Part shown: one piece after another, positions 6,001-22,657 of the stretch
Numbering within the stretch: the stretch's first letter is position 1
Layout of the letters: each line of letters opens with the position of its first letter
From: Thermoplasmata archaeon
GTDB lineage: Archaea > Thermoplasmatota > Thermoplasmata > GCA-020350865
Assembly (NCBI GenBank): GCA_020348445.1
Contig: CP070751.1
Span: forward strand, 997,451 to 1,039,208
Direction of reading: 5' to 3'
Length of the DNA stretch: 41,758 nucleotides
The notes under the pieces: generated by a model
What the model was told of the DNA's origin: nothing
The model's input: the letters and a program-made list of their open reading frames with translations, nothing else
The model's database searches: none
Made by a program: the position numbers and the translations under genes

Positions 6001-6035
6001 GTTGTCACTACGAGTAAATCTATCGGTTTTCTCAT
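1..6035 (-). CDS. Giant secreted/cell-surface protein: NosD/CASH parallel beta-helices, FN3-like domain and tandem Ig-like repeats. 3' end runs off the window; >2,011 aa. Paralogue of 6151..13041.
   Basis: Not in the ORF track. Manual translation starts at ATG 6035 (RBS GAGGTGA at 6041-6047) and reads MRKPIDLLVVTTLVLGILQIVLPLNNSTVEAGTPDDGVDGLQYIDGDW. The frame was open at the points checked (5490-5640, 3-62) and still reads VTPSEPTADSDLLADYQFID at the left edge. An internal stop would have made the track report it. Confidence 0.93.
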   Translation of the reverse strand, partial: MRKPIDLLVVTTLVLGILQIVLPLNNSTVEAGTPDDGVDGLQYIDGDWYVNGSESYTNEIIVLSGNLTINSGASLTLRNVTLAMNCSTENGTFTIDVWGSLDISDLDGDPATTSDYSNITDSPFDVDDRSSLDFRTAIKVYSGASLSIENSIIREMGYKGGGNNLGLFIDTNSVNIQNCTIENCLYGFYSTHDDFHTIGYNEFRYCDQYGINYAYGDYVKVYNNVVHHNDYGMHAWGQYNTIFNNYIHNNSNVFTNPPTSDKHGLYLRVDYSEIYNNTIEYNAGTGWCENVEMIDCHYIQFHHNRITNVKSGSFSSLYIYGSSNMDFHNNTISDNDDSGLRFSMSGTSNNNKFANNNISNNDGYGIFLQYGDEDDTYIFKDNVLINNSVGLELRQLRYYNFVNNTISLCRYNGVYINDVDGGDYSNFSNNTINATNYDFYLRDTVGPGDTVLEVLNCTFDPSKVNITYEACELVILNYLHLNVTDINSWVPGAYIVVKNNTDEIVFEGESDEDGQVRFIVVNNQTITKTENISYDPYNITATLDVHTAYGEIEPIMNVSQTVNVNFKVDLPPVPPGGLTAISNKTNVDLNWEPCVSSDADHYLVYRNQTGSGWLLVYDSSTSPGKELWTNWTDFHAASDWATYRYYITCVDQALQESQPSNVAQCGDWVVNDTLEISDLSTQMNGSLIILSTGNLTLKSVEIEFNCTFTDFYGIKVQPNGKFWILDNDDNPLTTGDRSYIFTINESYYFIMNGSEFVMKNSKLEKCGSDEGLAYGTWDFEIHAPQVMTAGEPWFRGLYISDPSADITVKNNDFSNNFVSILVDGTRNCDISGNTFSSNTFGIYLNNSDDNILSDNTFTDHQAFPIYILNSETNSIYENDIINPSSIQAGLVLFEGGCQANKIFKNNFTGGEYGVHIWEAGNNNNISNNYFDDLKRGVSIGFTIWNTILENDFNNTSQYDYYLFWVHSSIISKGTSNWANEGYYLENSNDNTISDIIIENSSSSGIHLENCNNVQITNITIKSCGTGIQVSGGNNLPLTDITIEDCTTGISCTSNPTFIELIKSRIYSGTVTAISINTCENFIVDNCSLNATNYNFNLIDADVTSYNTTFNQLKITLDLSSSISLWWLVNVRVYNWLGNPQQNAEVQIRNIAGTLIFEGFTDVNGYIGWIWMHERIQFATSKELYTPHTFHAYLGNHAGSNGLHLNQSTLVSVWLQNKPPQVSNVIISPSYPTTTDDLNLTYQYSDDEGDPQGSTKIIWYIDGVNITSFNNMLEINSSNTSKGQTWFCEVIPHDGTTYGIPMTSTPVSIQNTPPVVTGVVINETNPTSSDNLHVNYTFYDIDGDNETQSQYKWYVNDGFGYVYSGVDSLELDSSHTKKGDLWKCIVTPHDGDNLGASEESPEVLIDNSAPGVSDVIILPTSPKSNETITANYTYFDLDNDLESGSTIRWYKNGIEQWNLNDSDSVDSSLTLKGETWYYVVTPSDGDDFGDPAVSDPVIIGNTPPSVFNITISPLNPTTEDVLRVDYEFFDNDGDSESLDTIVKWLRWNGFEFFDTGLRGKNLSSEHTFKGENWTCEVIPNDGFSEGLVNRSTMNVTIGNSAPEILSAYITPTNPTSDSNLEVDYEYWDVDFDSESGSTIRWYKNAVEQWNLNDSTSVDSTLTLKGETWYYIYTPSDGEDFGTPFMSVSITIGNTPPYVLNITISPQDPTTEDVLTVSYEFYDNDGDLESLDTVVKWLRYSGSEFFDTGLRGKNLSSEHTNKGEMWTCEVIPHDGISEGLANRSHMNVSINNSAPKVLSASITPSDPTADSDLQVDFQFVDPDKDSDSGSKIRWYKDGMEQWNLNDSDIVDSSLTLKGEIWYYIITPSDGEDFGDPFISVSITIGNTLPYVLNITIAPLNPDTEDILTVSYEFYDNDGDSESLDTVIKWLRWSGSEYFDTGLRGKNLSSDHTSRAENWTCEVIPHDGLDEGAAIRSDMNVTIVNSKPGVSDAYVTPSEPTADSDLLADYQFID
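93..1820 (-). repeat. Three tandem 576-bp (192-aa) two-domain repeat units inside the first surface protein; a fourth unit begins at 92
   Basis: The Asn codon of the N-S-(A/K)-P module start recurs at 1820, 1244, 668 and 92, exactly 576 nt apart. The GLRGKNLSS and TPSDGEDFG coding segments also recur at about 576-nt spacing. Confidence 0.9.
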
Positions 6036-6040
6036 ATAAC

Positions 6041-6047
6041 TCACCTC
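6041..6047 (-). promoter_or_regulatory. Archaeal ribosome-binding site GAGGTGA of the first surface-protein gene
   Basis: Minus strand reads GAGGTGAGTTAT-ATGAGAAAA. Confidence 0.7.
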
Positions 6048-6150
6048 ATTTTACACTGGTCTCTATTACCCCCCTATACAGTTTGATCTTTGATATTACC
6101 AGGATAGATGTCAAGTATATATTATCTTTTGTTATAACCCAGTTTTTTTC

Positions 6151-9100
6151 TCACTCGTCATCGATATTTTCCTTTTCCCTAGATTCATCAGATTTATCGC
6201 CTATTTCTTCGTCAATTTCGTATTTTTCGGGTTTTATCTCAGGAGCCGGCCTTTCATTATGAATATTGCCTTTATCTTCAACCTCCCAATCACCAATCAT
6301 CCTGGATAATTCCTTCCGTTGAGTAGCTGTAAGTGATGAGGTCTGTGATATCGTCATGACAAAACCCTCGTATTCTTCCCTGGATATTCTACCGTCAGCA
6401 AGCATTTCATCCAGTTCCCTTGTCACTCCCTCAGGTAATTCCTCGAACTTATGGGCAACTGCAGCCCTTCGAATCTCCCCGCGCTTGCTTACCATGATCT
6501 CTTCAAGCATTAAAAAGTGCAGATCTTCAATATTACCTTGCTTGAATTCATCATTTATTCTAGCATCTAGCTCGTTTAGTTTATTCTCGTACTCGACAGG
6601 GTCCTCGCCCTTTCCCTCAGAGATTTCATCGATTTCTGCCATATATTTCTTAAGAGCGCCCTTTTTCTTCCTTATCTTGCTGTAACCGATAAAGGCAAGA
6701 AGACCGGTACCGGCAATTACAAGAATCTCAAGTATTATGCTCCACTGGTCCCAATTTAATCCAAGAATCAGCTCCTCACCAACATCTGCGACACTTAGGT
6801 TCCAGCCATACTCCGTTTCGTCAGTGCCATCACTGACCACTGCTGTTACTTTATGTTTTCCTGCAGCCGAGTAATCTGCAAAATATGTATACGAGCTACC
6901 ACCTGTCTGCACCACCACATCATCGAAGTACCACGTTATTTCAAGGGTATCTTCGGCATCCGGATCGCTTTCGTCTATCATGAATTTTAAAGATGTGTCT
7001 TCTTTCATTTTTGGAGATTTTGAAATGGGCTCTTTGACCTCGATTTGCGGTAGCAGATTAACATTGTTTACCACTATAGTCCATTCGAAATACAGCGTAA
7101 CCGACCTCTCACCCAAATCCTGAACCGATAGATTTAATGTGTATGTTCCCGCACTTTCATAATCGGTTTCGAACAGATAGGCTTCATCATCGCTTACAGT
7201 TTGTTTACCCAGTTTCCATTTGAATAATAGAAAATCACCGTCCGGATCTTCCACATCAACATAAAATTCCCATGATTCTGTCTCATTGAGGGTTATTTGA
7301 CCCTGCCCGGGGGAAATCGTATTTACCTGAGGTTCTGAATTTTCTATAACCACATGATATGAAGAAATGAGCTCACTATAATCCTCACCGTCAAATACGA
7401 TCAAGGTGTAAGACCACAGATCACCTTTTTGTGTGGCTGAAGATTCCACTACAAGGCCATCAATGTCCTGTAAAAGACCACTTTTATACCACTTGATCTC
7501 AGGGTCTTGTTCGGTATCTCCATCTTCATCAAAAAATGTGTAGTAAGCAGTAAGGTCGTTATCGCCTAGCGGAGGGCTGGGTGATATTGACAAATCCACT
7601 GCAGTTGGCGGGCTGTTTTGTATCGTGATTTCTGGGGATTGTATTGGGTCTCCAAAATCAAATCCATCCTTTGGTTGCACAATGAAGTACCAAACCTGGT
7701 CCTTTTGGGTTTCATCAGATGGGACAGTCAAAGCATTGGCGAGGGTGGTCATTTGAACGCCATCACGGTACCACATAATCGTAGTACCATCCTCAGAATC
7801 GCTATCCAGATCAGAATATTCATAATTTGCCACGAGGTCATACTGGGTTGTGGGCTCAGACGGGCTGATGTACACATCTGAAGCTATCGGAGGAGAGTTT
7901 AATATGGTCACCTCGAGACTGGAGTTAACATTACTTCCATAATCCAAACTATCGTGCGGTGTGACCACGCATTTCCACTCCTCGCCTTTAGTAGTGAATG
8001 ATGAAGATAGGATCTTTCCCTGATGACCAGTATAAGTAAATTCAAGGTCCCCCACCCTCTTTCTGTACCATTTGATTATTGTATCTATGCTCTCATCGTC
8101 GTCGTCTTCGTCATAATAGTCGTATTCAACAGTGAGCTCATCTGTAGTATCGGGATTTTGGGGATTTATAATCACATTGGATACTGATGGGGGAGTATTC
8201 CCAATAATTATGGATTCAGATTGAACTTGAATCCCAAGATCCTCTCCATCGCTGGGAGTTATGATATAGTACCATTTTTCTCCCTGTCGTGTCTTTTCTG
8301 GGGCAACAGAAGCACTACCATACAAATCTATCTGCTCCAGACCATCTTTATACCATCTGATTTCACTTCCCGATTCTGGATCATCGTCCAGGTCAAAATA
8401 AATATAATTTACCTGGAGTGTCTCATTACTAACAGGGGACTCAGGTATTACTATGACTTCTGAAACCTCAGGTGCCGTGTTGGTTATATTAACTGTAGGT
8501 GATAATTTAGGTTCACCGTAATCATCGCCATCTCCTGGAGATACCAAACATCTCCATTTATCACCCTTTTTGGTATAAATAGAACTTAATTCCATTGAAT
8601 CCACACCAGAGTATACCCAGCCAGAGCCATTATTCACCATCCATTTGCGTAATGACCAGGTTTCAGGATCATCGTCGATATCAAAATAAGTATAACTTAC
8701 ATGGAGATTATCAGAACTTCTCGGATTGGTTTCATCTATTAATACATTCGATGCAACCGGAGGTGTGTTTTGAATCGTAACAGGTATGGAGATCATGGGA
8801 ACGCCATATACTGTACCATCATGGGGGATGACCTCGCAGAACCAAGTCTGGCCTTTTTGGGTATATACACTGTCTATGATCATCCAATTGTTAAATGAAG
8901 AATAATGAATTCCGTCTATATACCATAAAATCATCGTGGTTCCTTCAGGATCATTTTCAGAATCTGTATACATATATGATAAATTCAGATTGGATACAGT
9001 TGTTGGATATGTCGGGCTTATTATCACGTTTGATGCAGTGGGTGCTGTGTTCTCCAAATATACGGTTATTACACCGGATTGATTCAGCATCAAATCCAAT

Positions 9101-12100
9101 GAACCAGAATGATTGCCGTAGTTGGCAAAGATGAAATGTGGATTCGAGGTTTCATTAGAGAATATATATTGTGTACGCTCGTGTAGCAATATCCATTTTG
9201 CATATCCCTGAGAATCTGTGTACCCGCTGAACATGATTGTTCCAAATACCTTTCTTACTTTAACCTCGGCATTTGATACGGGATTATCGATCCAGTCAAG
9301 AACTTTTACATGAATGTACCAATTAAGCGAAATACTGGAAGAATTATCCATTACTATTTTTGTTTGATAATATGTTGTGTTGATCAATATTATGGATGTT
9401 AATGTGAGATTGAAGTCTAATAGTGAAGAAGCGAAAGTGCAATTCTCGAATAAAACATTGTTACATCCCTCTCCAATGAATCCTTGTTCTATACCGATTT
9501 CAGCTGTAACATCCTGGAATATAACATTCTCTGAACCCCAAACAGTATAAATTCCAAAATTGCAATCTTCTATTGTAATATCGCTTGCAGTTAAGATACT
9601 TCCACCAGCAAATGCTAATCCACCGAAGCCACAATTATAGATAGAGGCTTTTTCAATTCTTAATTTATAACAGTAAAAACCAACGAAACCCGCCATTAAT
9701 GCATTATCAATAACAATATTTGAAAGAGTTATATTTCCTGAATTTGTGATATAACTGCCAAAAAAGCTATCTGTAATTGTCCCACCTTGGATGCTTGTTG
9801 AATCTGATTGATATATTAAATAACCTATGTATGAGTTATAAAAGTAATTATCCAATAGGATATTTCCACTGGAACCGTAAATATATATCCCGCCGTCATC
9901 CTGGTATGTTTGGTCGTATAAATTATTACCTGAGATGTTGTTATCAACACCTCCATCATAAATGGCAATCCCATAGTCACCCCACGATACTTCGTTGTTG
10001 AATATTTTATTATCATTACAGTTGCTTCCATAAATAACAATACCTGCTGCAACTGTGGGTCTGCTTCCCATAATTGGGTCAATGAACACATTATTGGAGT
10101 TAATGTGATTACTTATTGAATCAAATAAATAGATAGAATATGCAAAGGTTAAGTTAAATGTGTTTTGGTAAATATCATTATCGTATGCTTCATAAAGGTA
10201 TATACCGAATTTATTTTCGAAGAAGGTGTTGTTTCGTATAATGCAATTTTGAGCCCCATAAGGTAATATCGACACGAAATTGTTTGTGAAATTATTATTT
10301 TCGATTAGTACATTCGTAGCAACGCTTGAAATATACAAACCCCTAGTTTTTGGATCACCTTCGGTGATTACGTCCGGAGCCCATTTTTCAATGGCCCATT
10401 TCGGATATTCCAGTCCTTTTTCAGAGCCACAGGATAACACCTTGCTGTTTCTCATCTCGAATCTTGCGCCCTCCACAACGAAGTGAAAACCTACATCATA
10501 TCTAAATGATGTGATATTTGACTGGTCATCGATAGTCTGGGGATCATCATCCATATCCAAGATATAAAGCTCTCCACCAGGTTTTACTTTTATTCCAAAT
10601 TCACCCATATTACTGCAGTTGAATACCATATGAACCTTACTTAAAGTCACATTTCCATTGGATAGGACAATAAATGACCCATTGAGTTCTATTGAAAAAT
10701 CTGAGTACGATCTTGTATCGTTTATGGCCCAATCGCCGCATTTTGCTACATTCGAAAAATCACTTAACTGAAGGCCCAAATCCATTGCTAGAACTTTGTA
10801 CTTATAAAGGGTCCAATCCGAAGCTGCCATAAGATCTGTCCACTCGTTTGCCAAGGGGTCAGCATCCCCAATTGTATCATGGAATAATACCCAGTCCACG
10901 ACCGTTCCATTTCTATAAATCAGATAGTTACGAAGATCTGGGGAATGACAAGGAGTCCAGGTCAGGTGAACATCAATGTCCTTACTTACTGCAACTAGAT
11001 TCGTAGGTGTTTCTGGTCTGAGATCTGTTGTAAAATGCACGTTCACCGTCTGGGATACATCCATTATCGGTTCGATTTCACCCCAGGCCGTATCTCCATC
11101 TGATGTTGCAGTGATGTTGTAAGGATCATAGTACTTTATTTGATCGGGACTCGCTGGAGGTTTATATCTTGTTTGATTTACCAGTACTATGTATCGCAAT
11201 TGACCATTTTCATCTGTTCTTCCCATATAAGCTGTACTCCCATAGGCATCTTTTATTCTTATGGTGACATTTGGTGCAGCTCCTTGTACATCTGTTACAT
11301 CAAGATGGAGATAGTTTTGAAATACTATCGTTGGGCTACCAGGTGTATTTAAATATGTATCTTCTGGATCGCAGGTACAGTTCGTAACCACAAAATTTGT
11401 ATCAAAATAATCACCCACTGTGTCCGTTACAAAAAAATCAAAAGGTTCAGCATAAATCGTGTTGTCTATAAAGTCTCCATTCTCAACATCATTTATCCAG
11501 ACACCTGATCCAATGGTGGAACTTATGACGTTATCTGTGATTGAATATGCTCGAATAGTTGCCAAATACAATCCATAATCATCATTCTGATAGAAATCGT
11601 TATTCTTTACCTCGATATAATTGACAAAATCTGGTGAATTATTACCAAAAAACATCAAACCCACACCACTGTTAAAAGAAATATTATTATCGTAAAAGAA
11701 ATTGTTGGTTTTGTCATCATTTAAATCGCATCTGATCGCTGCTGATAGAATTGAACCATCGTTATGTGTTACTGTGTTGTTGTGAAAAGTGATATCATTA
11801 CTTCTATCAATAAAAACGGAGTAATAGCTGTTTGTATCGAGTTTTTGCATCGTATTGCCAAATATCGTTATATTATCGCAAAAATCTATATTCAGGTTAT
11901 GCGAGTAAAACTCCAAACCACCATTATATACCAATGTATTATCAAACACTTGCGAGTCCCTGCTATCACCAACCTCAATACCATGATCTGTGTTATTATG
12001 AACCTCATTATTGTAGATACTTGAATTGTAGATTCGCCAAGCTCTTATTCCTTCATAGTAATTATTGTAAATCGTATTATCATAGATTGTGAAATTATCC

Positions 12101-13041
12101 CCCTCTAATTGCAATCCCCTGTCGTTATCATAAACTTCGTTATTATAAATTAAATTATCTTCACAGGTTGTAAACGACATCTTGCCAATATATATACCAT
12201 AATCGTAGTTATGGTGAACATCGTTGTTATATATCCTACTTCTTTGAATACCAGGTTTTGAATAAATGCCATAACTGTTATGGTGGAGATTGTTTCCGTA
12301 TACAACAAAATTCTCACCACCCAAACCTATCCCCCAGCTCGAGTTGTGGATTTCATTCCCATATATGTAACAATTTTTTATATAGGACTCCGCTGTAATA
12401 CCATAATCTGAATATCTGAAAAGATTGTTCGCGATTGTAACGTTCTCTGCTTGATCAAGATAAATGCTGTACCTGTTATTTTCAAATGTACAGTTCTGTA
12501 TATCTGCATAATCGGTCATTATCGTGAGCCCATAATATGGATGACTCCAGCTACCACTTTCCCGAACCAAAGAATTATGAATTGAAAAAGATGCACCATC
12601 ATATACGACTATTGAGTAATGGAAATCGTGGTCTAATGAGCCATTATCAGTATCAAAGGGACTGTCCGTGATATTTGAAAAATCGTTAACTGTAGCTGGA
12701 TTACCATCTATGTCAGTTATGGTCAACGAGCCCCCGTCATCAACTATTATGTTGTATTGATGATCCGCAATTGTGCAGTTCATAGCTAGTGTGACATGCC
12801 TTAAGGTCAATGAACCTCCAGAATTGATTATAAGGCTTCCATTTAACACGATTATCTCGTCAGTGTAAGTTTCTGTTCCATTAACTATCCAGTCCCCCTC
12901 GATATACTGAAGGCCGTCGACTCCATCATCTGGTGTGCCTGCACTTACATTCCCATTATTAAACGGTAATACAATCTGCATCACGTTGAATATTAGCATA
13001 CTTGCGACTATGAGATATACTATTTTTCTCATAAACATCAC
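6151..13041 (-). CDS. Giant type I membrane-anchored surface glycoprotein: 2x NosD/CASH beta-helix superdomain, FN3-like, about 6 Ig-like Asp-rich repeats, 2 further Ig/PKD-like domains, TM helix, about 170-aa cytoplasmic tail. Likely true start ATG 13032.
   Basis: N-terminal signal peptide. Many I.I..N.I..N...GI beta-helix repeats. RPETPTNLVA...LTW...YLIYR FN3-like motif. NT(A/P)P..V.I.P...L..Y.Y.D.D.D.E...WY repeats. Hydrophobic ILEILVIAGTGLLAFIGY followed by KIRKKK. RBS GAGGTGA lies 5 nt before ATG 13032. Confidence 0.92.
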   Translation of the reverse strand: MMFMRKIVYLIVASMLIFNVMQIVLPFNNGNVSAGTPDDGVDGLQYIEGDWIVNGTETYTDEIIVLNGSLIINSGGSLTLRHVTLAMNCTIADHQYNIIVDDGGSLTITDIDGNPATVNDFSNITDSPFDTDNGSLDHDFHYSIVVYDGASFSIHNSLVRESGSWSHPYYGLTIMTDYADIQNCTFENNRYSIYLDQAENVTIANNLFRYSDYGITAESYIKNCYIYGNEIHNSSWGIGLGGENFVVYGNNLHHNSYGIYSKPGIQRSRIYNNDVHHNYDYGIYIGKMSFTTCEDNLIYNNEVYDNDRGLQLEGDNFTIYDNTIYNNYYEGIRAWRIYNSSIYNNEVHNNTDHGIEVGDSRDSQVFDNTLVYNGGLEFYSHNLNIDFCDNITIFGNTMQKLDTNSYYSVFIDRSNDITFHNNTVTHNDGSILSAAIRCDLNDDKTNNFFYDNNISFNSGVGLMFFGNNSPDFVNYIEVKNNDFYQNDDYGLYLATIRAYSITDNVISSTIGSGVWINDVENGDFIDNTIYAEPFDFFVTDTVGDYFDTNFVVTNCTCDPEDTYLNTPGSPTIVFQNYLHLDVTDVQGAAPNVTIRIKDAYGSTAYMGRTDENGQLRYIVLVNQTRYKPPASPDQIKYYDPYNITATSDGDTAWGEIEPIMDVSQTVNVHFTTDLRPETPTNLVAVSKDIDVHLTWTPCHSPDLRNYLIYRNGTVVDWVLFHDTIGDADPLANEWTDLMAASDWTLYKYKVLAMDLGLQLSDFSNVAKCGDWAINDTRSYSDFSIELNGSFIVLSNGNVTLSKVHMVFNCSNMGEFGIKVKPGGELYILDMDDDPQTIDDQSNITSFRYDVGFHFVVEGARFEMRNSKVLSCGSEKGLEYPKWAIEKWAPDVITEGDPKTRGLYISSVATNVLIENNNFTNNFVSILPYGAQNCIIRNNTFFENKFGIYLYEAYDNDIYQNTFNLTFAYSIYLFDSISNHINSNNVFIDPIMGSRPTVAAGIVIYGSNCNDNKIFNNEVSWGDYGIAIYDGGVDNNISGNNLYDQTYQDDGGIYIYGSSGNILLDNYFYNSYIGYLIYQSDSTSIQGGTITDSFFGSYITNSGNITLSNIVIDNALMAGFVGFYCYKLRIEKASIYNCGFGGLAFAGGSILTASDITIEDCNFGIYTVWGSENVIFQDVTAEIGIEQGFIGEGCNNVLFENCTFASSLLDFNLTLTSIILINTTYYQTKIVMDNSSSISLNWYIHVKVLDWIDNPVSNAEVKVRKVFGTIMFSGYTDSQGYAKWILLHERTQYIFSNETSNPHFIFANYGNHSGSLDLMLNQSGVITVYLENTAPTASNVIISPTYPTTVSNLNLSYMYTDSENDPEGTTMILWYIDGIHYSSFNNWMIIDSVYTQKGQTWFCEVIPHDGTVYGVPMISIPVTIQNTPPVASNVLIDETNPRSSDNLHVSYTYFDIDDDPETWSLRKWMVNNGSGWVYSGVDSMELSSIYTKKGDKWRCLVSPGDGDDYGEPKLSPTVNITNTAPEVSEVIVIPESPVSNETLQVNYIYFDLDDDPESGSEIRWYKDGLEQIDLYGSASVAPEKTRQGEKWYYIITPSDGEDLGIQVQSESIIIGNTPPSVSNVIINPQNPDTTDELTVEYDYYDEDDDDESIDTIIKWYRKRVGDLEFTYTGHQGKILSSSFTTKGEEWKCVVTPHDSLDYGSNVNSSLEVTILNSPPIASDVYISPSEPTTQYDLVANYEYSDLDSDSEDGTTIMWYRDGVQMTTLANALTVPSDETQKDQVWYFIVQPKDGFDFGDPIQSPEITIQNSPPTAVDLSISPSPPLGDNDLTAYYTFFDEDGDTEQDPEIKWYKSGLLQDIDGLVVESSATQKGDLWSYTLIVFDGEDYSELISSYHVVIENSEPQVNTISPGQGQITLNETESWEFYVDVEDPDGDFLLFKWKLGKQTVSDDEAYLFETDYESAGTYTLNLSVQDLGERSVTLYFEWTIVVNNVNLLPQIEVKEPISKSPKMKEDTSLKFMIDESDPDAEDTLEITWYFDDVVVQTGGSSYTYFADYSAAGKHKVTAVVSDGTDETEYGWNLSVADVGEELILGLNWDQWSIILEILVIAGTGLLAFIGYSKIRKKKGALKKYMAEIDEISEGKGEDPVEYENKLNELDARINDEFKQGNIEDLHFLMLEEIMVSKRGEIRRAAVAHKFEELPEGVTRELDEMLADGRISREEYEGFVMTISQTSSLTATQRKELSRMIGDWEVEDKGNIHNERPAPEIKPEKYEIDEEIGDKSDESREKENIDDE

Positions 13042-13270: not shown

Positions 13271-14692
13271 ATGGGGGGCAATCTGATGAATGCGATAAAG
13301 AGCTTTTTTAAACCTTCCTCAGTGGCTGTAATAGGCGCATCCCCGAAAAAGGGGAAAGTAGGCAATATAGTACTTAATAACATAATATACGGCTCTGAGG
13401 AGAACGAGAAAAATGGTGTAGTGGGAGGATTTAAAGGGAATATATACCCAATAAATCCCAAGGCAGATGAAATATCAGGACTCAAGGTGTATGACTCCGT
13501 AATCAAGGTCCCCTCCGAAGTGGATATGGCAGTTGTGTGTATTCCACCTAAAGCAGTTAAGGATGCAATTGAAGATTGTGGAAAAAAAGGTGTGAAATCC
13601 ATTGTGATCATCACGGCAGGTTTCTCTGAGATGGGAGCTGAAGGGAAAAATCTGGAAAAAGAAATCCTGTCAACAGCAAAAAAATATAAAATACGCATAA
13701 TTGGCCCGAACTGTCTTGGAATTATCAGCCCTTTCTGTGATCTCAACGCAAGCTTCGGCGATGCTGTCCCAAAACGCGGTCCCATTTCCTTTGCTTCCCA
13801 AAGCGGCGCTCTGTGCACATCAGTTATTCAATACTCCTTTGAGGAATATCTTGGATTCTCGAATTTCGTGAGCATCGGAAACAAGTCTGACGTTGACGAT
13901 TCTGATCTAATTGAATATTTCCATTCTGACCCGTATACCAAATGCATCATGCTTTATATCGAGTCTTTAAAGGATGCCAGAAAATTCTTCAAGACCGCCC
14001 GCAATGTAGTGAGAGACAAGCCCATAGTGGCATTCAAATCAGGATACACAGAGGAAGGTGCCAAAGCCACATCCTCACATACAGGTAGCATTGCGGGCTC
14101 AGATGCTGCCTATGAAGCTGCTTTTAGACAGTCCGGAGTGTTTCGTGCAAGGACATTAAGTGAGCTTTTCGATGCATCACGGGCACTTGCATACCAGCCT
14201 GTTCCGAAAGGGGAAAAAATCGCGATCCTGACCAATGCGGGAGGTCCTGGCGTTCTTGCTGCAGATAAGGTATTTTCCCTTGGCATGCAGCTCGCCGATC
14301 TTTCCGAAGACACTATCAAGAAGCTGGATAGAATATGTCCTCCCAATTGGAGCCGCCGCAATCCCATAGATATAATCGGTGATTCCACAGCGCAAAGATA
14401 TGATGACGCCCTTAAGGTCCTGATGAATGCCAAGGAGGTGGATGCCGTAATTCTGCTTTTGGCTCCCACTGCTATGGCCCATCCATTGAATCTTGCGTAC
14501 AGAATAGTTGACATACAGCTCGCCACTGGAAAACCCATCTCAGTCTCATTTGTTGGTATGGTCCACCAAGAATCTGAGAATTATTTGGACAGCAAAGGTA
14601 TACCTGAAATAGAGTATCCTGAGCGGGCTGTATTTGCCATGTACGCTCTCATGGAACGCTATCGATTCTTGAAAAAGGAGGGATTGATTTGA
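13271..14692 (+). CDS. acdA: Acetate/acyl-CoA ligase (ADP-forming), alpha subunit
   Basis: FFKPSSVAVIGAS CoA-binding start, IIGPNCLG, SQSGAL, phospho-His motif SHTGSIAGSD, ILTNAGGPGVLAAD, NPIDIIGD. Confidence 0.93.
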   Translation: MGGNLMNAIKSFFKPSSVAVIGASPKKGKVGNIVLNNIIYGSEENEKNGVVGGFKGNIYPINPKADEISGLKVYDSVIKVPSEVDMAVVCIPPKAVKDAIEDCGKKGVKSIVIITAGFSEMGAEGKNLEKEILSTAKKYKIRIIGPNCLGIISPFCDLNASFGDAVPKRGPISFASQSGALCTSVIQYSFEEYLGFSNFVSIGNKSDVDDSDLIEYFHSDPYTKCIMLYIESLKDARKFFKTARNVVRDKPIVAFKSGYTEEGAKATSSHTGSIAGSDAAYEAAFRQSGVFRARTLSELFDASRALAYQPVPKGEKIAILTNAGGPGVLAADKVFSLGMQLADLSEDTIKKLDRICPPNWSRRNPIDIIGDSTAQRYDDALKVLMNAKEVDAVILLLAPTAMAHPLNLAYRIVDIQLATGKPISVSFVGMVHQESENYLDSKGIPEIEYPERAVFAMYALMERYRFLKKEGLI

Positions 14693-15396
14693 AAAACAAG
14701 GCAATTTCTGAACATATTTCCTCTGCAATAAAAAGCGGAAAATCCATTCTAGATCTTGAGGAAGCCAGGGAAATCATGGAGCTTTCTGGAATACCATTTA
14801 ACAAATCAGGTTTTGGAAAAACCGAAGATGAGGTGGTTTCGGTTGCCAATGAAATGGGATATCCAGTGGCATTGAAGATCGTATCTCCTCAGATCGTTCA
14901 CAAAACTGAATCAGGGGGGGTTAAACTCGATATCAATTCTGAGGAAGAAGTGAAATTTGCTTATCGCGAAATCATGAAAAGTGTTAAAAACAAGGTTCCA
15001 GATGCCGAGATTTTGGGAATATCAATAGACGAGATGGTAAAGGGAACAGAGCTTATAATCGGAACCACGGTGGACCCTCAATTTGGGCACATGATAATGT
15101 TCGGCATCGGCGGTATATTCGTGGAAATATACGAGGATGTGAGTTTTCGATTGATTCCAATAACCTCAGGCGATGCAAAGGATATGTTAAACGAAATCAA
15201 AGGCAGGCCATTACTCGATGGAGCAAGGGGCCGGCCAAAGATCGATGAGGGACAATTAGTTGATATTCTCATGAAGGTCTCCGAGCTTGTGGATAAAAAT
15301 CCCGATATACAGGAAATGGATCTCAATCCCCTCATGGCAAATGAAAGCAATGTTGTTGCCGTGGATGCAAGGATAATACTGAAAAAGTCCGAATAA
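14689..15396 (+). CDS. acdB: Acetate/acyl-CoA ligase (ADP-forming), beta subunit (ATP-grasp)
   Basis: GYPVALKIVSPQIVHKTESGGV, DPQFGHMIMFGIGGIFVE, EMDLNP...AVDARI. Overlaps the acdA stop by 4 nt (TTGA). Confidence 0.93.
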   Translation: MKNKAISEHISSAIKSGKSILDLEEAREIMELSGIPFNKSGFGKTEDEVVSVANEMGYPVALKIVSPQIVHKTESGGVKLDINSEEEVKFAYREIMKSVKNKVPDAEILGISIDEMVKGTELIIGTTVDPQFGHMIMFGIGGIFVEIYEDVSFRLIPITSGDAKDMLNEIKGRPLLDGARGRPKIDEGQLVDILMKVSELVDKNPDIQEMDLNPLMANESNVVAVDARIILKKSE

Positions 15397-15530: not shown

Positions 15531-15887
15531 ATGATGCAGAATATGGTTGAGGTACATGGTAAGAAGTTCTGCAAGGATACAGTTGAATTGATTGCAGGCA
15601 ACCGCGGTGTAACAGATGTAGACAAGAAATTCCTTCCTGTATTGGAGGCAATTGACAAACCCAGTGAGCTTCCATTTCTTCTTGATGAGATCAATTCAAT
15701 GAAACCCACAGATGAGCTTCGCCTAGCTCTTGTCAGGGTACAGGTCCATTCCGAACTCAACATGCATGAGGATTTAAATATGCATCAAAAAAGACTTTAC
15801 GCGGCACAGACCATGGAAAAGATGCTTTGGGGAGAGCTTCTTCTGGACGGGGGCAAGGAAAAGGAAGAAGATAAGGGGAAGGAATAG
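15531..15887 (+). CDS. Hypothetical protein, 118 aa, predicted helical
   Basis: GGAG upstream, protein-like composition, acidic/basic tail; no family recognised. Confidence 0.75.
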   Translation: MMQNMVEVHGKKFCKDTVELIAGNRGVTDVDKKFLPVLEAIDKPSELPFLLDEINSMKPTDELRLALVRVQVHSELNMHEDLNMHQKRLYAAQTMEKMLWGELLLDGGKEKEEDKGKE

Positions 15888-15997: not shown

Positions 15998-16567
15998 ATG
16001 CGAAAAACCATTGCTGTTATAGGTACAGTTGTAATATTTATATTATTTTCTACAGTGGCAAGAAATGCCCTAGCAATAGGGACTTTTACAGTAGAATTAA
16101 CTGAGCATGAAAAAATCTGCTACCTCAATACTAATAATTCTAATGAAGTAATATTATATGGCTTCGTAAATTTTACAGGTGGGGGAGCAACAGAAACAGT
16201 TGTTTCGTTGACTTCAAATTGTGATTTATGGGATTCAATAGTCGAACCAAATGAAGTTCGATTTCGTACCTCAGGTAGTGAGGAATTCAATGTAAAAATC
16301 GATATCCCTCAAAACACTAATAATGGAACAACAGGCCATTTAAGTGTTACAGGTATATCACAACAAGGGGCCACCACCTATTCTTATGCTGATTTTGCAG
16401 AAATATATGTATTCAATCTTTCTGAAGATGGTAACGGAAATAACCAAGATAAATCGGAAAAAGATAAACCTGAAGACAACCAAACTTTCCCATTAATAAT
16501 ATTAATCGTTGTCGTTGCCATAATTGCTCTTTTCCTAATCTATAAATTAAAATTTAAAAAGGAATAA
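15998..16567 (+). CDS. Exported beta-rich (Ig-like) protein with C-terminal membrane anchor
   Basis: Signal peptide MRKTIAVIGTVVIFILFSTVARNALA, beta-strand-rich core, D/N/K linker, C-terminal LIILIVVVAIIALFLIY followed by KLKFKKE. Confidence 0.75.
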   Translation: MRKTIAVIGTVVIFILFSTVARNALAIGTFTVELTEHEKICYLNTNNSNEVILYGFVNFTGGGATETVVSLTSNCDLWDSIVEPNEVRFRTSGSEEFNVKIDIPQNTNNGTTGHLSVTGISQQGATTYSYADFAEIYVFNLSEDGNGNNQDKSEKDKPEDNQTFPLIILIVVVAIIALFLIYKLKFKKE

Positions 16568-16647: not shown

Positions 16648-18123
16648 ATGAATATGAAAAGGGGTAATCTCATGAAATCACCTGAGCAGTACAAGGAAAG
16701 CCTTAGGAAGATGCGTGTGAACATCTACAAATTTGGCGAGCTTATTTCAGATGTGACAACCCATCCTGCGACAAGGGCCACAATCGAGGGCCACGCACAG
16801 ATTTTCAAGGCTGCGCAAAATCCCGAGTACCAGGATATCTTAACCACAACCTCTTCTCTTTCTGGCGATAGAATATCCCGCTACCTCTCCCTAATAAAGA
16901 ATGCAGATGATATGATTGCAAATTCCAAAATGAAAAGGCTCATGTTCAATTTAACTGGCACATGCACTGGTGGAAGATGCGTTGGATGGACTGCACTAAA
17001 TGCCATGTGGGCTTCAACCTATGATATGGATCAAAAACTGGGAACAGATTATCATGAAAGAATGAAAAATTGGCTTGCCTGGGCCCAGAAACAGGACATA
17101 ACGTTGGCAGGTGCTCTGACAGACCCAAAAGGTGACAGAACAAAGCCTCCTTCCAAACAGGAAGATCCTGACATGAATCTTCGTATATTGGAGGGTAGGG
17201 ATGATGGAATAATTGTCAGGGGTGCAAAGGTAATGATATGCGGTGTTGCAGCAGCAAACGAGATCTTTGTTTTGCCTGGGATGGGCTACGAAGCTGAGGA
17301 TAAGGATTACGCTGTGTCCTTTGTTATCCCAAGGGATATTGAAGGATTAACTATCGTTGAGGCAAGGCATCCAAGTGACTTGAGGGAATTTGAAGAGAGC
17401 TTTGACATCCCAGTTAAGATGGGAGGGATAACCCAGGCCTATCTTTTATTTGAAGATGTGTTTGTTCCCAAAGAAAGGGTTTTCATGAAAAGAGAACATG
17501 ATTTCTCCCATGAGGCTGTAATGAACTTCATAATGCCGTATCGATCAGCTATTGGGGCTTGTGTTGCAGGCCAGGGTGATGTGATGATAGGTGCTGCAGT
17601 TTTAGTTGCCCAAGCCAATGGTCTTTCTGAGAAGACGTTTAGGGAAAAATTAACAAAGATGAGCATCAACAACGAAACTACATTTGGTTGTGGTATAGCT
17701 GCAGCCACATTGGGAAAGAAGCATCCTTCTGGTGTCTGGCTCTGCGATCCCCTGCTTGCCAATGTAAACAAGGTCCATGTTGCCACTTTGCCTTATGAAA
17801 CCAAGATTCTGGCCCAGGACATTTCTGGCGGTATTGGTGAAACAGGATGCATACCTTCATACAAGGATTTTAATGATGAAAGATACGGCCATCTCATACA
17901 AAAATATTTGAAGGCTTGCTCCTCTGCAGAGGACAGGGTAAAAGCAGCCAGGCTTGTTGAATGGCTTACAGTGGGAGCTGGGATACCAGGCTGCATGCAC
18001 GGAGGGGGCTCGCCTGAGGGTGCGAAGCTCATTATCAGGGCAAACATGGAGATAGAGGATAAGGTTAAGATGGCTAAGAGACTGGCTGGAATCGAACAGG
18101 AAAACAAGAAGACTGGACAATAA
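16648..18123 (+). CDS. 4-hydroxybutyryl-CoA dehydratase (AbfD)/HpaB-family FAD-Fe-S enzyme with atypical active-site residues
   Basis: GALTDPKGDR, DPDMNLRI, GIIVRGAK, DKDYAVSF, FEDVFVP.ERVF, DPLLANVNK, MHGGGSP match the AbfD family. The Cys motif is CTGGRC rather than CFQRC. Confidence 0.85.
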   Translation: MNMKRGNLMKSPEQYKESLRKMRVNIYKFGELISDVTTHPATRATIEGHAQIFKAAQNPEYQDILTTTSSLSGDRISRYLSLIKNADDMIANSKMKRLMFNLTGTCTGGRCVGWTALNAMWASTYDMDQKLGTDYHERMKNWLAWAQKQDITLAGALTDPKGDRTKPPSKQEDPDMNLRILEGRDDGIIVRGAKVMICGVAAANEIFVLPGMGYEAEDKDYAVSFVIPRDIEGLTIVEARHPSDLREFEESFDIPVKMGGITQAYLLFEDVFVPKERVFMKREHDFSHEAVMNFIMPYRSAIGACVAGQGDVMIGAAVLVAQANGLSEKTFREKLTKMSINNETTFGCGIAAATLGKKHPSGVWLCDPLLANVNKVHVATLPYETKILAQDISGGIGETGCIPSYKDFNDERYGHLIQKYLKACSSAEDRVKAARLVEWLTVGAGIPGCMHGGGSPEGAKLIIRANMEIEDKVKMAKRLAGIEQENKKTGQ

Positions 18124-18140: not shown

Positions 18141-18542
18141 TTGAAAGGCACTTATGCCCTGTTGATGCATCTTGAGGATGATAAGAACATCAGGATAGGA
18201 AGTCTGGGGAGCATTGATTTTCTTAAAGGACATTATCTTTATATTGGCTCCGGTATGAACGGTATAGAGGGAAGGGTCCGAAGACATCTTAGAGACAAAA
18301 AGAAAAATCACTGGCACATAGATTATTTTTTAGAGAAGGTCAAGATAACTAATGTTTATTATATCAATAAAAAGCGGGAATGTATCTTGGCCAATAACTT
18401 TTCCCAGAAATTCGAGGTTGTTCCAAGATTTGGATCCTCGGACTGCAATTGCAAAGGCCATCTTTTTTATGGAGGACATAGGGAACTTGTGGATTGTGCT
18501 TTACAAAACAGATTGAGTATTCTTAATTTAACCGAATTATAA
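18141..18542 (+). CDS. GIY-YIG (Uri superfamily) nuclease, DUF123 type
   Basis: KGTYAL...G.YLYIGSGMNG...RVRRH...HWHIDYFL...FGSSDCNCKGHLF. TTG start after GAGGG. Confidence 0.88.
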   Translation: MKGTYALLMHLEDDKNIRIGSLGSIDFLKGHYLYIGSGMNGIEGRVRRHLRDKKKNHWHIDYFLEKVKITNVYYINKKRECILANNFSQKFEVVPRFGSSDCNCKGHLFYGGHRELVDCALQNRLSILNLTEL

Positions 18543-18550
18543 ATTCTTAT

Positions 18551-21226
18551 TTAATTCAATTTTCTAGGGGGCTGGACCATGGTTTTACACATTGGACATT
18601 CTATTGGAAGGAAATCCCCCTCGTGCAATATTATGGGATAGCGGCAGTTGGAACAGAATATCTTGGTATCTGAGATTGTTGGTGGGTGGTCCCTTATTTT
18701 TTGTATAATAGGTGCATCCGTCGGTGTTTCCTCTTTAGGGGGGATATCTTCTTCAGATGCATCCTCGATATGGTCCTCTTTCTCAATTTCTTTATCTTCA
18801 ACAATATGACCTTCATCTATTATAGATTCCTCTTCAGCTTTTACTGTTTTAGGGTGTTTTGTATATAATTTCTTCATCACAAGGGTTGTAATTAACATAG
18901 GAATGACTATTACCGCGAATAATATATAATAAAAATAATCCACAAGTGAGAACGGCTTGCTATTTGCGTCCAATGGGTTCGTCCCTGCTTTGTATTCCTG
19001 AAGGTTTGTATATCCGTCATCATCTTTATCTTCTTTCGCGTCTTGATGATTTGTGGAATTCAAACCATATTTTTCTTCCCATTGATCGGGTATACCATCA
19101 TTGTCATCATCCAAGTCAGCATTATTGCCAATTTTATCATTATCGGTGTCAAGCCATTCATTGGGATCATCTGGAAATGCATCAGGATTGTTGCCTCTTG
19201 TATTGTCTCCCCAACCATCACCGTCCCTGTCATCCCATTGTGTTGGGTCATTAGGGAAAGCGTCCTCTACATCTCTGATACCATCCTCATCAGAATCCAG
19301 AATGATAGTAATAAATCCAATATCACATGGCTTAGCAATTTGATTACCTGCTAAATCCCAAATAATCACACGGATTTGGTAATCGCCATCCTTAACGAAA
19401 TTACTATTCGAATTCTTTCCATCCCAAGTTATAAACTGAAACTCTGCTGTGGTATTGCCTTTTAATATCATATCAGTTGTATTATCAAAACCTTGTACCC
19501 CATCTGTATCTATAATCACTTCATAATGTCCCTGCTCATTTGTTGTGAATTCTAAATAGAAGTTATCACGGGGTAGAAGCAAGAAACCGTGTATAATATA
19601 TGGAGATGATATGAAAAACGGGGGTTTAGTATCTGGTGGTATACTTCCAGTGTAAGGTTGCATCAACGGGTAATTATCATACGTATTTGAATCAATCTCA
19701 TAGGGAGTATCCCCTATTCCATCACCATCGTCGTCGCTTCCAGTATAATCACTCCAGTAGTTACCTTCTCCACCATAATCCCATATATTGTTGGTTCCAT
19801 CATCAAATCCTAGTTCTCCTACAGCATCGTTATCAATGAAATTATTATGATAGATAATATTTTCAGATGGTGGGATATCCCCTGTAGAAGCAACTAAACG
19901 AATGTAATAAGTAAAGCTTAATTTATTACAATTTATAAGAGTGTTTTCAGTAATACGATTTTGCTTACATGCTTCTCGAAGATAAATACCTTCAAATTTA
20001 ATAGATGAAATATTATTCCTTGATATATCATTAAAACTAGCATCCCACAACCATATACCAAAATCGCTGTCAATTACAATATTATCAATAATATTAATAT
20101 AATTGCTATTACTAAGAAAAATCCCTTTATGCCATGCACTTTGGATAGAGTTACTAGATATGAAGTTATTGTTAGATTTTTTTAAATAAATACCTGTTAT
20201 ACCTCCAAAAACATCATTATTCGTTAGATTACAGTACGATGATAATTTCATGGAGATTCCCCAACTATTATTCCAAATCTTATTTCCCGTAATTATTATA
20301 TTATCTGAATATGAGATATCTACTCCACCAAGTGTATTGATTATTTCTAGATTTCTAACAGATATATTAGAACAATTGACCAGAATGAGCTCTCCAACGT
20401 GTATACCATCAATATCCATCCAGTGACGACTCACATAATAATACAATGGTTTATTATTTACAATATTGTTATCTGGTATCGTATGTGATGTGTAATGGTA
20501 TAATTGGTCACCACTAATACTTACACCGTCTCTTGTGAAATTATTGTTAATTAGCATATTATTTGACGATTTTCTTAGGCTTACTCCACCAAACTCCCGA
20601 TTGTTTGATATATTATTATTTGTAATAATGTTATTAGAAGACAAATAGACTTCGATCCCTCCTAGGTTGTTTAAAATATCATTATTTGTTATATTATTAT
20701 TAAATGATGAGTAAATGTATATTGCGTGATTATTAAGAAAGAATCGATTATTATAAATCCGACAGAATTTTACGTTATTTAGTTCTAATCCAGCATAGGA
20801 GTATCCTTTAGTTATGTTGAATCCTGTGATATTTACATAATTTGTATTAACATTTATTGTATCTCCATTGCCATCGCCATCAATTATGGTGGTAATCTTA
20901 TTCTCACCTGTCAAATTGATCGTTTTGCTTACCCACAGATTTTCGTAATATGTCCCATTATAAACGTAAACCGTATCTCCATCATTAGCTGCATCTATCG
21001 CATCCCCTATATTTGAATAATCAGCTGGGCCATCATCATCCACCGTGATTGTTGCAGCTTCCGAGTTCTTGGTGGTGAACAAAAGCAACACTATGATTAA
21101 AAACGCAAAAACTCCCAGCCAAATAACGCTTCTTAGGGAAAAATGCTTGCTTTTTACGGTCTTCTGCGGAGTATTACTTTGAAAAATATTGTAGCCTAGA
21201 TTTCTAAATAAATTTATATTCATCAT
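18551..21226 (-). CDS. Membrane-anchored surface protein: NosD/CASH beta-helix, FlgD-like Ig domain, thrombospondin type-3-like Ca-binding repeats, TM helix, C-terminal Cys4 zinc ribbon
   Basis: ATITVDDDGPADYSNIGDAIDAA...VYVYNGTYYENL, NYWSDYTGSDDDGDGIGDTPY, ITWDGKN...DGDYQI, DSDEDGIRDVEDAFPNDP, DKDDDGYTNLQEYKAGTNP, TM YYILFAVIVIPMLITTLV, CSNC-x13-CPMC. Confidence 0.88.
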   Translation of the reverse strand: MMNINLFRNLGYNIFQSNTPQKTVKSKHFSLRSVIWLGVFAFLIIVLLLFTTKNSEAATITVDDDGPADYSNIGDAIDAANDGDTVYVYNGTYYENLWVSKTINLTGENKITTIIDGDGNGDTINVNTNYVNITGFNITKGYSYAGLELNNVKFCRIYNNRFFLNNHAIYIYSSFNNNITNNDILNNLGGIEVYLSSNNIITNNNISNNREFGGVSLRKSSNNMLINNNFTRDGVSISGDQLYHYTSHTIPDNNIVNNKPLYYYVSRHWMDIDGIHVGELILVNCSNISVRNLEIINTLGGVDISYSDNIIITGNKIWNNSWGISMKLSSYCNLTNNDVFGGITGIYLKKSNNNFISSNSIQSAWHKGIFLSNSNYINIIDNIVIDSDFGIWLWDASFNDISRNNISSIKFEGIYLREACKQNRITENTLINCNKLSFTYYIRLVASTGDIPPSENIIYHNNFIDNDAVGELGFDDGTNNIWDYGGEGNYWSDYTGSDDDGDGIGDTPYEIDSNTYDNYPLMQPYTGSIPPDTKPPFFISSPYIIHGFLLLPRDNFYLEFTTNEQGHYEVIIDTDGVQGFDNTTDMILKGNTTAEFQFITWDGKNSNSNFVKDGDYQIRVIIWDLAGNQIAKPCDIGFITIILDSDEDGIRDVEDAFPNDPTQWDDRDGDGWGDNTRGNNPDAFPDDPNEWLDTDNDKIGNNADLDDDNDGIPDQWEEKYGLNSTNHQDAKEDKDDDGYTNLQEYKAGTNPLDANSKPFSLVDYFYYILFAVIVIPMLITTLVMKKLYTKHPKTVKAEEESIIDEGHIVEDKEIEKEDHIEDASEEDIPPKEETPTDAPIIQKIRDHPPTISDTKIFCSNCRYPIILHEGDFLPIECPMCKTMVQPPRKLN

Positions 21227-21412: not shown

Positions 21413-22657
21413 CTATTCTATTAAAGGCACAGTAACACTCCCATCCATCAAGAACAGCACTTTAGCGTTCTCGCCCTTTTGGGATATCGCAGCATCCACT
21501 GCCTTCTGAATACTTGGACAGGACTTCATAAAGGCTTTCTTTATTTCCCTGTCCTCCACATCAGTTATCGCCCATATCTCACCCTTTTTGGATGCTTCAA
21601 CTATCCTTGCAGCCTTATGATATCCAAGCTTGTAGCCCTTGTCTATGGTATCCAATACCTCCTTGGCATCTGAGGAGCTCGCTAAGAGGTCAAAGAAGAC
21701 CTTGTCTCCAATCCCGTCCCGGCATTTGGACACCAAAATGATTATTCCCCCATCCTTTAAGGCCATCTTTCCATTTTCAATGGCCTTCTGAGATTGATAT
21801 AGATCAACATCCATTGGATAAGGTGCCACAGAAACCACGATGTCCGCTTTTTCTTTTATCTTGACTGCAAAAACCTCGTTCGCCTTTTTAATAGCCGCAT
21901 GGAAGGAATCATAAATGTGGCCGGCTGTGGCTGCATAGATTTTCTGATGCCTGTCAAGCACAGCCATAATTGAAAATATCTCCTTATCTTGGATGGTCTT
22001 AATGGCATCCTCCATGTCCTCGGCAACCGGATTTCCCTCTAAAGCCAAGGGTTGGGCCTCGGGCCTCATGGCGTACCTGTGGTTCTGCTCGATGGTTTTG
22101 TAAGAGGCTATGCCAGGCAAGAAGGATTTCCTTCCACCAGTGTATCCTGCAAAATAATGAGGCTCCACAGAACTTATGATAACGATTTTATGGGCTTCGA
22201 CACCCAATTTATTGACATACATTTCCGTGCCATTCTTTGATTTGCCAATAAAAACCATATCCTCCTCGCGTTTTGCATCGTGAATAAATATTTTATCTCT
22301 AAGAGAATCCAGATGCTCACCAAATATGAACTTGAGCTCTTCCTCTGTGGGTGCCCTATGAATGCCAGTGGCAATTATGAATCTTATGTCTTTATCCTTT
22401 ATCTTATCGTAAAGGATACCCAATATCTTCGAGGTGGGAGTTGGTCTTGTGCCGTCATTTACTATGAAAAGGACATCCTTGGCATCGCTTAAGAATTCCT
22501 CGAAGGATTTTGAGTTTATTGGATTGTCAATTGCATTGAAAATAGTGCTTTGTTCATCCCCGAGTTCAACCTCATTTGGCATAACTATACCTGCCAGGTT
22601 CTGCTCAGGAACTTCCACAGAAATCGATTCTTTGCCGTAAGGAATTTCAAGCTTCAT
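21413..22657 (-). CDS. larA: Nickel-pincer-dependent lactate racemase (LarA) family protein
   Basis: NDGTRPTP, ATGIHR, EPHYFAGYTGGRKS (catalytic His and cofactor-binding Lys), QNH, DLYQSQKA, GYHKA. Confidence 0.9.
   Translation of the reverse strand: MKLEIPYGKESISVEVPEQNLAGIVMPNEVELGDEQSTIFNAIDNPINSKSFEEFLSDAKDVLFIVNDGTRPTPTSKILGILYDKIKDKDIRFIIATGIHRAPTEEELKFIFGEHLDSLRDKIFIHDAKREEDMVFIGKSKNGTEMYVNKLGVEAHKIVIISSVEPHYFAGYTGGRKSFLPGIASYKTIEQNHRYAMRPEAQPLALEGNPVAEDMEDAIKTIQDKEIFSIMAVLDRHQKIYAATAGHIYDSFHAAIKKANEVFAVKIKEKADIVVSVAPYPMDVDLYQSQKAIENGKMALKDGGIIILVSKCRDGIGDKVFFDLLASSSDAKEVLDTIDKGYKLGYHKAARIVEASKKGEIWAITDVEDREIKKAFMKSCPSIQKAVDAAISQKGENAKVLFLMDGSVTVPLIE

Follow-up and report, generated by a model that had tools for sequence, protein, structure and literature searches.

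Can an enzyme keep the scaffold of 4-hydroxybutyryl-coenzyme A (CoA) dehydratase (AbfD, or 4HBD; EC 4.2.1.120) while giving up the residues on which AbfD chemistry depends, and if so, what reaction does it serve? The question is raised by a gene in a 41,758-nucleotide stretch of a Thermoplasmata archaeon (positions 997,451 to 1,039,208 of contig CP070751.1, assembly GCA_020348445.1; "the window" refers to this whole stretch). The window DNA is ~39% GC and archaeal-looking, and its source is a 5.16-Mb scaffolded metagenome-assembled genome (MAG). A sequence-only reading of the window had singled out the open reading frame (ORF) at 16648-18123 (+) as an Fe-S/flavin adenine dinucleotide (FAD) enzyme of AbfD type with a rewired active site. 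The analysis firmly shows that the gene is intact and under selection, and that its product is an enzyme of a distinct subfamily of AbfD. This subfamily is a large, conserved and unstudied sister group of 4HBD; literature searches found no description of it, or of DUF6125, its partner protein.

The ORF is open throughout and specifies 491 amino acids (aa). Homologues and the database gene call (483 aa) have M9 as their first residue, so that the true start is probably at 16672.

16672..18123, + strand: gene of the AbfD-like FAD/[4Fe-4S] enzyme (earliest in-frame ATG at 16648, start probably at 16672)

The AbfD scaffold and its replaced residues

The protein is composed of the Pfam domains HpaB_N and HpaB. 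Its top solved relative is AbfD of Clostridium aminobutyricum (1u8v; HMMER E 1.5e-105), followed by the Nitrosopumilus 4HBD (6vjr; E 3.3e-98). Structures of HpaB monooxygenases match only at ~1e-30, and the cut-offs of the NCBIfam HpaB equivalogs TIGR02309 and TIGR02310 are not reached (152.4 vs 480.2 bits and 94.2 vs 885.2 bits, respectively). The AlphaFold2 model (mean predicted local distance difference test score, pLDDT, of 81.9) has 1u8v as its first Foldseek match, with a template modelling (TM) score of 0.83. Domain composition (HpaB_N and a C-terminal HpaB domain), length (~490 aa) and collinearity with 1U8V are those of the AbfD fold. Acyl-CoA dehydrogenase (ACAD) structures are matched only at the level of the fold (TM 0.4-0.5, Foldseek), and the Pfam domains Acyl-CoA_dh_N, Acyl-CoA_dh_M and Acyl-CoA_dh_C are absent at E 0.01 or better.

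In AbfD, C99, C103, C299 and H292 are the ligands of the cluster, and T190, E257, Y296 and E455 matter for dehydration (10.1101/2020.02.05.935528). A gapped HMMER alignment to AbfD (PDB 1U8V) places the corresponding positions in the following segments.

16963..16980, + strand: CTGGRC, with cluster cysteines C106 and C111 (AbfD C99 and C103) in Cx4C spacing
17230..17244, + strand: VMICG, with C198 at the AbfD T190 position
17428..17442, + strand: ITQAY, with Q263 at the AbfD E257 position
17539..17565, + strand: YRSAIGACV, with Y298 (AbfD H292), I302 (Y296), C305 (C299, kept) and V306 (K300)
17839..17850, + strand: ETGC, a 2-residue insertion of the clade with invariant E398 and C401, common to the sister lineage P0126
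17989..18003, + strand: GCMHG, with invariant C449 at AbfD S456, after a 4-residue deletion removing E455

All six of H292, Y296, K300, E257, T190 and E455 are changed. The three cysteines that serve AbfD as [4Fe-4S] ligands are present and invariant (C106, C111 and C305), though CFQRC of AbfD has become the one residue longer CTGGRC, and C99-x3-C103 accordingly C106-x4-C111. The fourth ligand, His292, is Tyr in the window protein and in 120 of 121 relatives. T190 is replaced by Cys, Y296 by Ile, K300 by Val and E257 by Gln, the last 35 residues ahead of Y298. At the segment that reads ESMHG in AbfD and GCMHG here, HMMER sets a 4-residue deletion: E455 is either deleted or Gly, and S456 corresponds to C449. 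The canonical residues are not recovered by any other alignment. The sequence-only reading had listed each of these substitutions, together with the retention of C299, and the gapped alignment bears out the entire list; what that list overlooked is the ETGC insertion (residues 398-401), which has no counterpart in AbfD and bears the invariant C401.

The published catalytic residues of AbfD are, on firm grounds, not usable by the window enzyme. Zhang et al. (2015) reportedly found that single changes at H292, E257, E455 or Y296 abolish dehydration. E455 is located in the AbfD active site.

Conservation of the clade and the ligands of the cluster

Of the 121 database proteins nearest the window protein, each with 70% identity or more, 121 have CTGGRC, 120 have YR..IG.C and 113 have GCMHG; the co-occurrence of the three motifs across a clade, which had been proposed as a check on the substitutions, is thus found. 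In an alignment of 38 sequences (65-86% identity), C106, C111, C305, C401 and C449 are invariant and position 198 is Cys in 36. A metagenome scan with two clade motifs yielded at least 553 confirmed loci. The clade's sources include Thermoplasmata, Zixibacteria/GN15, Chloroflexota, Acidobacteriota, Eisenbacteria and Elusimicrobia, and they are MAGs without exception. The tree that had likewise been called for (FastTree) makes the clade monophyletic (Shimodaira-Hasegawa-like support 95), with branches that are short relative to those of other AbfD-family representatives. Seventy-nine of 401 sampled Thermoplasmatota genomes carry it, nearly always as their sole AbfD-family match; in two families it is common (38 of 53 genomes in one, 20 of 24 in the other). 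The gene is also the single AbfD-family member of the window's own genome, as assembled, and its product has the subfamily signature (Cx4C, Y-R-x2-I-G-x-C, the ETGC insertion and GCMHG) complete.

Against the closest locus, the ratio of nonsynonymous to synonymous substitution (dN/dS) is ~0.04; synonymous sites are saturated against the remaining loci compared. The window gene is under strong purifying selection, and the substitutions go far beyond chance or decay private to one genome, in line with the intact enzyme proposed by the sequence-only reading.

A survey of the wider AbfD/HpaB superfamily, by representatives at 50% identity, puts these substitutions in perspective. Only a few lineages have the canonical signature (CFQRC, T, E, H, Y, C, K), and many with the three cysteines differ from it. 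Among 48 three-Cys representatives, Cx4C spacing tracks loss of the His ligand (6 of 8 with Cx4C vs 4 of 40 without; Fisher p 4e-4). The loop that follows the GG motif contains a Cys in 4 of 10 His-less lineages vs 3 of 38 others. Numbers are small and the lineages related, so that both associations are only suggestive. The tree sister of the clade is a single 50%-level representative, P0126 (uncharacterised, 45% identical). Like the clade, P0126 has Cx4C, Tyr at 292, Ile at 296 and the ETGC insertion; unlike the clade, it has Phe at C449, Ala at C198 and Ala at the E257 position.

By homology, FAD and the [4Fe-4S] cluster are probably still bound, and the cluster would then be ligated differently from that of AbfD. 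With three new conserved cysteines (C198, C401 and C449), the suggestion that the cluster is all-Cys, or that there is an additional metal site, is plausible. C401 is the stronger candidate to stand in for His292 as fourth ligand, since P0126 shares ETGC without having C449 or C198. C449 is a possible ligand as well: the A447-S448 segment of AbfD, which is also the segment of E455, lines the tunnel right behind the cluster. Inside the model, pLDDT falls below 50 only in the loops bearing C401 and C449.

Genomic company and the likely reaction

Clustering the neighbours of 86 loci yields three recurrent contexts. The first is an operon of ACAD, AMP-forming acyl-CoA ligase, electron-transferring flavoprotein (Etf) subunits EtfB and EtfA, DUF6125 and the AbfD-like protein (~19-25 loci). 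The second has a divergent hbd gene with acetate/butyrate kinase and nfnAB. The third belongs to a subclade with an aminoacyl-tRNA-synthetase-like neighbour and, at times, a divergent ACAD; crotonase is also found nearby. In the tree, the Etf/DUF6125 context corresponds to one subclade; the window gene is in the other.

The window's genome nevertheless has a copy of the first operon, 0.36 Mb from the window (locus L093, G000:C1:1372000-1388000, at 3836-9019: bcd-like ACAD, AMP-ligase, etfB, etfA, DUF6125). Its ACAD is closest to Clostridium difficile Bcd (5ol2_C, E 6e-142), EtfB and EtfA are both nearest to bifurcating Etfs, and the ligase resembles short-/medium-chain acyl-CoA synthetases. 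An analogy of the operon with caffeyl-CoA reductase, CarCDE, was dropped: the ACAD is nearer Bcd than CarC (E 1.4e-114). The L093 operon ends inside DUF6125 in a scaffold gap of 100 N (8820-8919), so that the seemingly single contig is in fact scaffolded, and another AbfD-like copy may lie, unassembled, beyond the gap. That this DUF6125 gene (L093:8444-9019) is cut short and the AbfD-like gene lost was an interpretation that was withdrawn, the break being the gap itself.

Fusions extend the picture. EtfA::AbfD-like proteins of 825-877 aa, which come from several phyla, make up five or more protein clusters, and a single AbfD-like::ACAD fusion also occurs; all have the full signature. So does P0396, a 936-aa metagenome protein in which the AbfD-like part is joined to a complete pyridoxal-phosphate enzyme of Cys/Met metabolism (a gamma-elimination family). 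This last fusion could be a functional hint or an artefact of gene calling.

The genomic company of the clade is, firmly, that of the crotonyl-/butyryl-CoA node of anaerobic fermentation and not that of an autotrophic cycle. The proposal in the sequence-only reading that the enzyme acts on another acyl-CoA finds no support in the form given: the neighbours (Bcd/EtfAB-like proteins, Hbd, crotonase, acetate/butyrate kinase, acyl-CoA synthetases) fit a crotonyl-CoA-forming enzyme such as AbfD, which leaves 4-hydroxybutyryl-CoA or vinylacetyl-CoA as a possible substrate.

DUF6125 is present in 70 of the 401 Thermoplasmatota genomes, 60 of which also carry the AbfD-like clade; in 46 of these 60 the two genes are adjacent (60 bp or less). 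The clade occurs alone in 19 genomes and DUF6125 alone in 10. (The genomes are related, and the counts are not independent samples.) DUF6125 is a stand-alone protein of 176 aa with five conserved Cys and one His. Its model (pLDDT 89.8) best matches the phenol-sensor domains of DmpR and PoxR (Z 9.3 and 8.1, over ~155 residues); further matches are Bet3/TRAPP, BcsD, H-NOX and a V4R protein. The predicted fold is of a small-molecule-binding type. DmpR has a zinc site of Cys3-Glu type (Cys151/Glu172/Cys177/Cys185; PMC7264223), and the Cys-rich C-terminal region of DUF6125 resembles it; unlike the V4R-type regulators DmpR, PoxR and MopR, DUF6125 lacks an AAA+ and a DNA-binding domain. A role as ferredoxin-like electron carrier was considered and set aside in view of the V4R/phenol-sensor-like predicted fold and the zinc-type Cys site. 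It more probably acts as an accessory or regulatory subunit that binds a ligand than as a carrier of electrons.

Two further observations concern DUF6125. In seven genomes (G071, G194, G065, G253, G241, G379 and G124) it lies in the same frame as the AbfD-like gene with one stop between them (open frames of 669-707 aa); this probably reflects chance phasing of coupled genes, though it is a near-fused state. The window's genome also has a full-length second DUF6125, following a pyridine-nucleotide-disulfide oxidoreductase (L094, G000:C1:2472000-2486000; the DUF6125 gene at 7015-7545 within 7015-12242, - strand), in a cluster that includes two DtxR-type iron regulators and FeoA/FeoB.

What, then, does the enzyme do? 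The account to which we incline, with rather more belief than doubt, is of a distinct AbfD-type FAD/[4Fe-4S] enzyme working at the crotonyl-CoA node with its catalytic machinery replaced. The protein keeps the acyl-CoA-dehydrogenase-like HpaB fold and the three AbfD cluster cysteines; the His ligand and the Tyr296/Glu455/Glu257/Thr190 network, by which AbfD makes and manages its radical, have given way, with the new residues C198, C401, C449 and E398 in place. Its most likely reaction would be the interconversion of a C4-type acyl-CoA and crotonyl-CoA in anaerobic fermentation, with 4-hydroxybutyryl-CoA or vinylacetyl-CoA as prime substrate candidates and another gamma-substituted acyl-CoA as a possibility. 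Crotonyl-CoA might then be reduced by the bifurcating-type Bcd/EtfAB or oxidised by way of Hbd, and a neighbouring ADP-forming acyl-CoA synthetase would make or use the CoA ester.

Three considerations weigh against this account. Genes for 4-hydroxybutyrate dehydrogenase, succinate-semialdehyde enzymes or CoA-transferase do not recur next to the AbfD-like gene in the sampled loci, and 4-hydroxybutyrate as input is for that reason unproven. If single changes abolish dehydration by AbfD, the same reaction would require a truly different mechanism. Finally, the EtfA fusions could be the sign of a redox role instead.

The account can be carried a step further, to a speculative proposal that we regard as possible but doubtful: a new type of Fe-S flavoenzyme descended from AbfD, in which an external electron would start a radical gamma-elimination or some reductive form of that reaction. 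The lost Tyr/Glu initiator and an all-Cys cluster (with C401 of the ETGC loop or C449 as fourth ligand) would go together with wiring to bifurcating EtfAB/Bcd and with the V4R-like DUF6125 as accessory subunit. If this were true, it would constitute a fourth way to start an anaerobic radical dehydration, besides ATP-driven activators, adenosylcobalamin and radical SAM.

Among the alternatives, the one that survives best, although it too is unlikely, places the enzyme closer to electron transfer: it would be an oxidoreductase coupled to Etf, or else a radical enzyme that is initiated externally, and would have EtfAB as partner and an all-Cys cluster for electron transfer. Etf would either supply the electron that Tyr296 gives internally in AbfD or drive a net reduction. 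The EtfA and ACAD fusions, etfBA directly upstream in one subclade, the new invariant cysteines and the loss of the internal radical-generating residues all speak for it. On the other hand, the same operons contain a Bcd-like ACAD, which is the ordinary partner of Etf, so that the fusions may merely mirror operon neighbours; the window's own subclade has no adjacent etf genes; and 19 of the 79 clade-bearing Thermoplasmatota genomes are without detected DUF6125. What keeps Etf coupling alive is that the internal radical-generating network is gone and that fusions to EtfA and ACAD exist.

That the protein is an ordinary 4HBD, working by the AbfD mechanism in the autotrophic dicarboxylate/4-hydroxybutyrate or 3-hydroxypropionate/4-hydroxybutyrate (3HP/4HB) cycle and adequately labelled as such, is improbable. 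Identity to AbfD is ~45% (at the level of P0126), the match to 1u8v is strong, the clade is labelled 4-hydroxybutyryl-CoA dehydratase (abfD) by JGI, and a study of MBG-D archaea took such a gene as a marker of the cycle (PMC6461988). The His ligand and all four dehydration-linked residues are missing, however, and the contexts (Bcd/Etf, Hbd, Ack, NfnAB) are fermentative. NCBI, for its part, lists the clade as HpaB-domain proteins, and the earlier caution that neither a routine 4HBD nor an HpaB label is safe holds. The point has practical weight, as abfD (K14534) serves in environmental surveys as single marker of the dicarboxylate/4-hydroxybutyrate and 3HP/4HB cycles. The clade is not a safe marker of carbon fixation through 4-hydroxybutyrate. 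It is labelled abfD, is abundant in sediment metagenomes, lacks H292 and the four residues and has fermentative operons as its setting, and dark CO2 fixation may be overestimated where it is counted.

A paralogue that has lost its activity, is decaying or has a structural role alone is very improbable: changes at the H292 ligand and at Y296, K300, E257, T190 and E455 would be expected of one, but the low dN/dS with synonymous sites saturated, the 65-86% identity across phyla with many invariant residues that include the new Cys and Glu, and the standing of the gene as sole family member of its genome, carried by most genomes of two Thermoplasmatota families, all argue otherwise. An HpaB-type two-component phenol monooxygenase, which the Pfam domains and the phenol-sensor-like fold of DUF6125 might call to mind, is barely credible in the light of equivalog scores far below their cut-offs, the distant match to HpaB structures compared with AbfD, conserved Fe-S cysteines, anaerobic sediment hosts and neighbours that are CoA-ester enzymes.

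Neighbours in the window and known systems

The genes surrounding the AbfD-like gene in the window are as follows.

13271..14692, + strand: alpha subunit of an ADP-forming acyl-CoA synthetase (its synteny with the AbfD-like gene holds in loci L003 and L008)
14689..15396, + strand: ADP-forming acyl-CoA synthetase, beta (ATP-grasp) subunit
15531..15887, + strand: 118-aa protein of no known family (kept between synthetase and AbfD-like gene in L003 and L008)
18141..18542, + strand: DUF123 protein, directly downstream of the AbfD-like gene (adjacency recurs in 4 loci)

The order synthetase, ~120-aa protein, AbfD-like protein, DUF123 is preserved in the closest relatives, L003 and L008. The synthetase alpha subunit is closest to generic archaeal acyl-CoA synthetases (2csu, 4xyl); 8wzu, an ADP-forming 4-hydroxybutyrate-CoA ligase, matches at E 7e-94. 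Pfam and Atlas searches return nothing for the 118-aa protein, which may be a small subunit or regulator, since its position is kept in both relatives. In the window's genome only, the conserved neighbours are interrupted by a 189-aa protein (15998-16567, +) that has a signal peptide and, at its C-terminus, a membrane anchor, as well as sequons of N-glycosylation type. Farther downstream are a NosD/beta-helix surface protein (18551-21226, -) and a gene of LarA type (lactate racemase family; 21413-22657, -), the latter also kept in L008. In L003 a DtxR-like gene is directly upstream of the AbfD-like gene. A second EtfA, a 400-aa open frame (L091, G000:C1:1042796-1043038), is found ~3.6 kb past the window end and ~27 kb from the AbfD-like gene.

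The oxygen-tolerant 4HBD of Nitrosopumilus maritimus (6VJR) is a close homologue, and its gene also adjoins one for an ADP-forming acyl-CoA synthetase, as the window gene does; unlike the window protein, it has the canonical residues and belongs to an aerobic autotrophic cycle. Likely functional neighbours are the bifurcating Bcd/EtfAB systems (5OL2, 4KPU/4L1F, 6FAH), which come nearest to the ACAD, EtfB and EtfA of the operon. Their ACAD-type fold is common with the AbfD-like protein, which, unlike Bcd, is not an ACAD by Pfam and has Fe-S cysteines. The conserved partners DUF6125, EtfAB and Bcd hint at how the chemistry may be driven.

The nearest comparison is with AbfD itself (1U8V), the enzyme that dehydrates 4-hydroxybutyryl-CoA and isomerises vinylacetyl-CoA. 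Fold and length are the same, the two proteins are collinear over residues 10-482 and have the three cluster cysteines in common, and the neighbours of the AbfD-like gene are likewise those of crotonyl-CoA metabolism. Unlike AbfD, the clade has the Cx4C spacing, the six residue changes, Cys in place of S456 and the ETGC loop with its invariant Cys; often it has DUF6125 as partner, and it is also found fused to EtfA or ACAD. The clade amounts to an experiment of nature: a textbook radical enzyme has had its His ligand and active-site residues swapped while its scaffold and cluster cysteines were kept.

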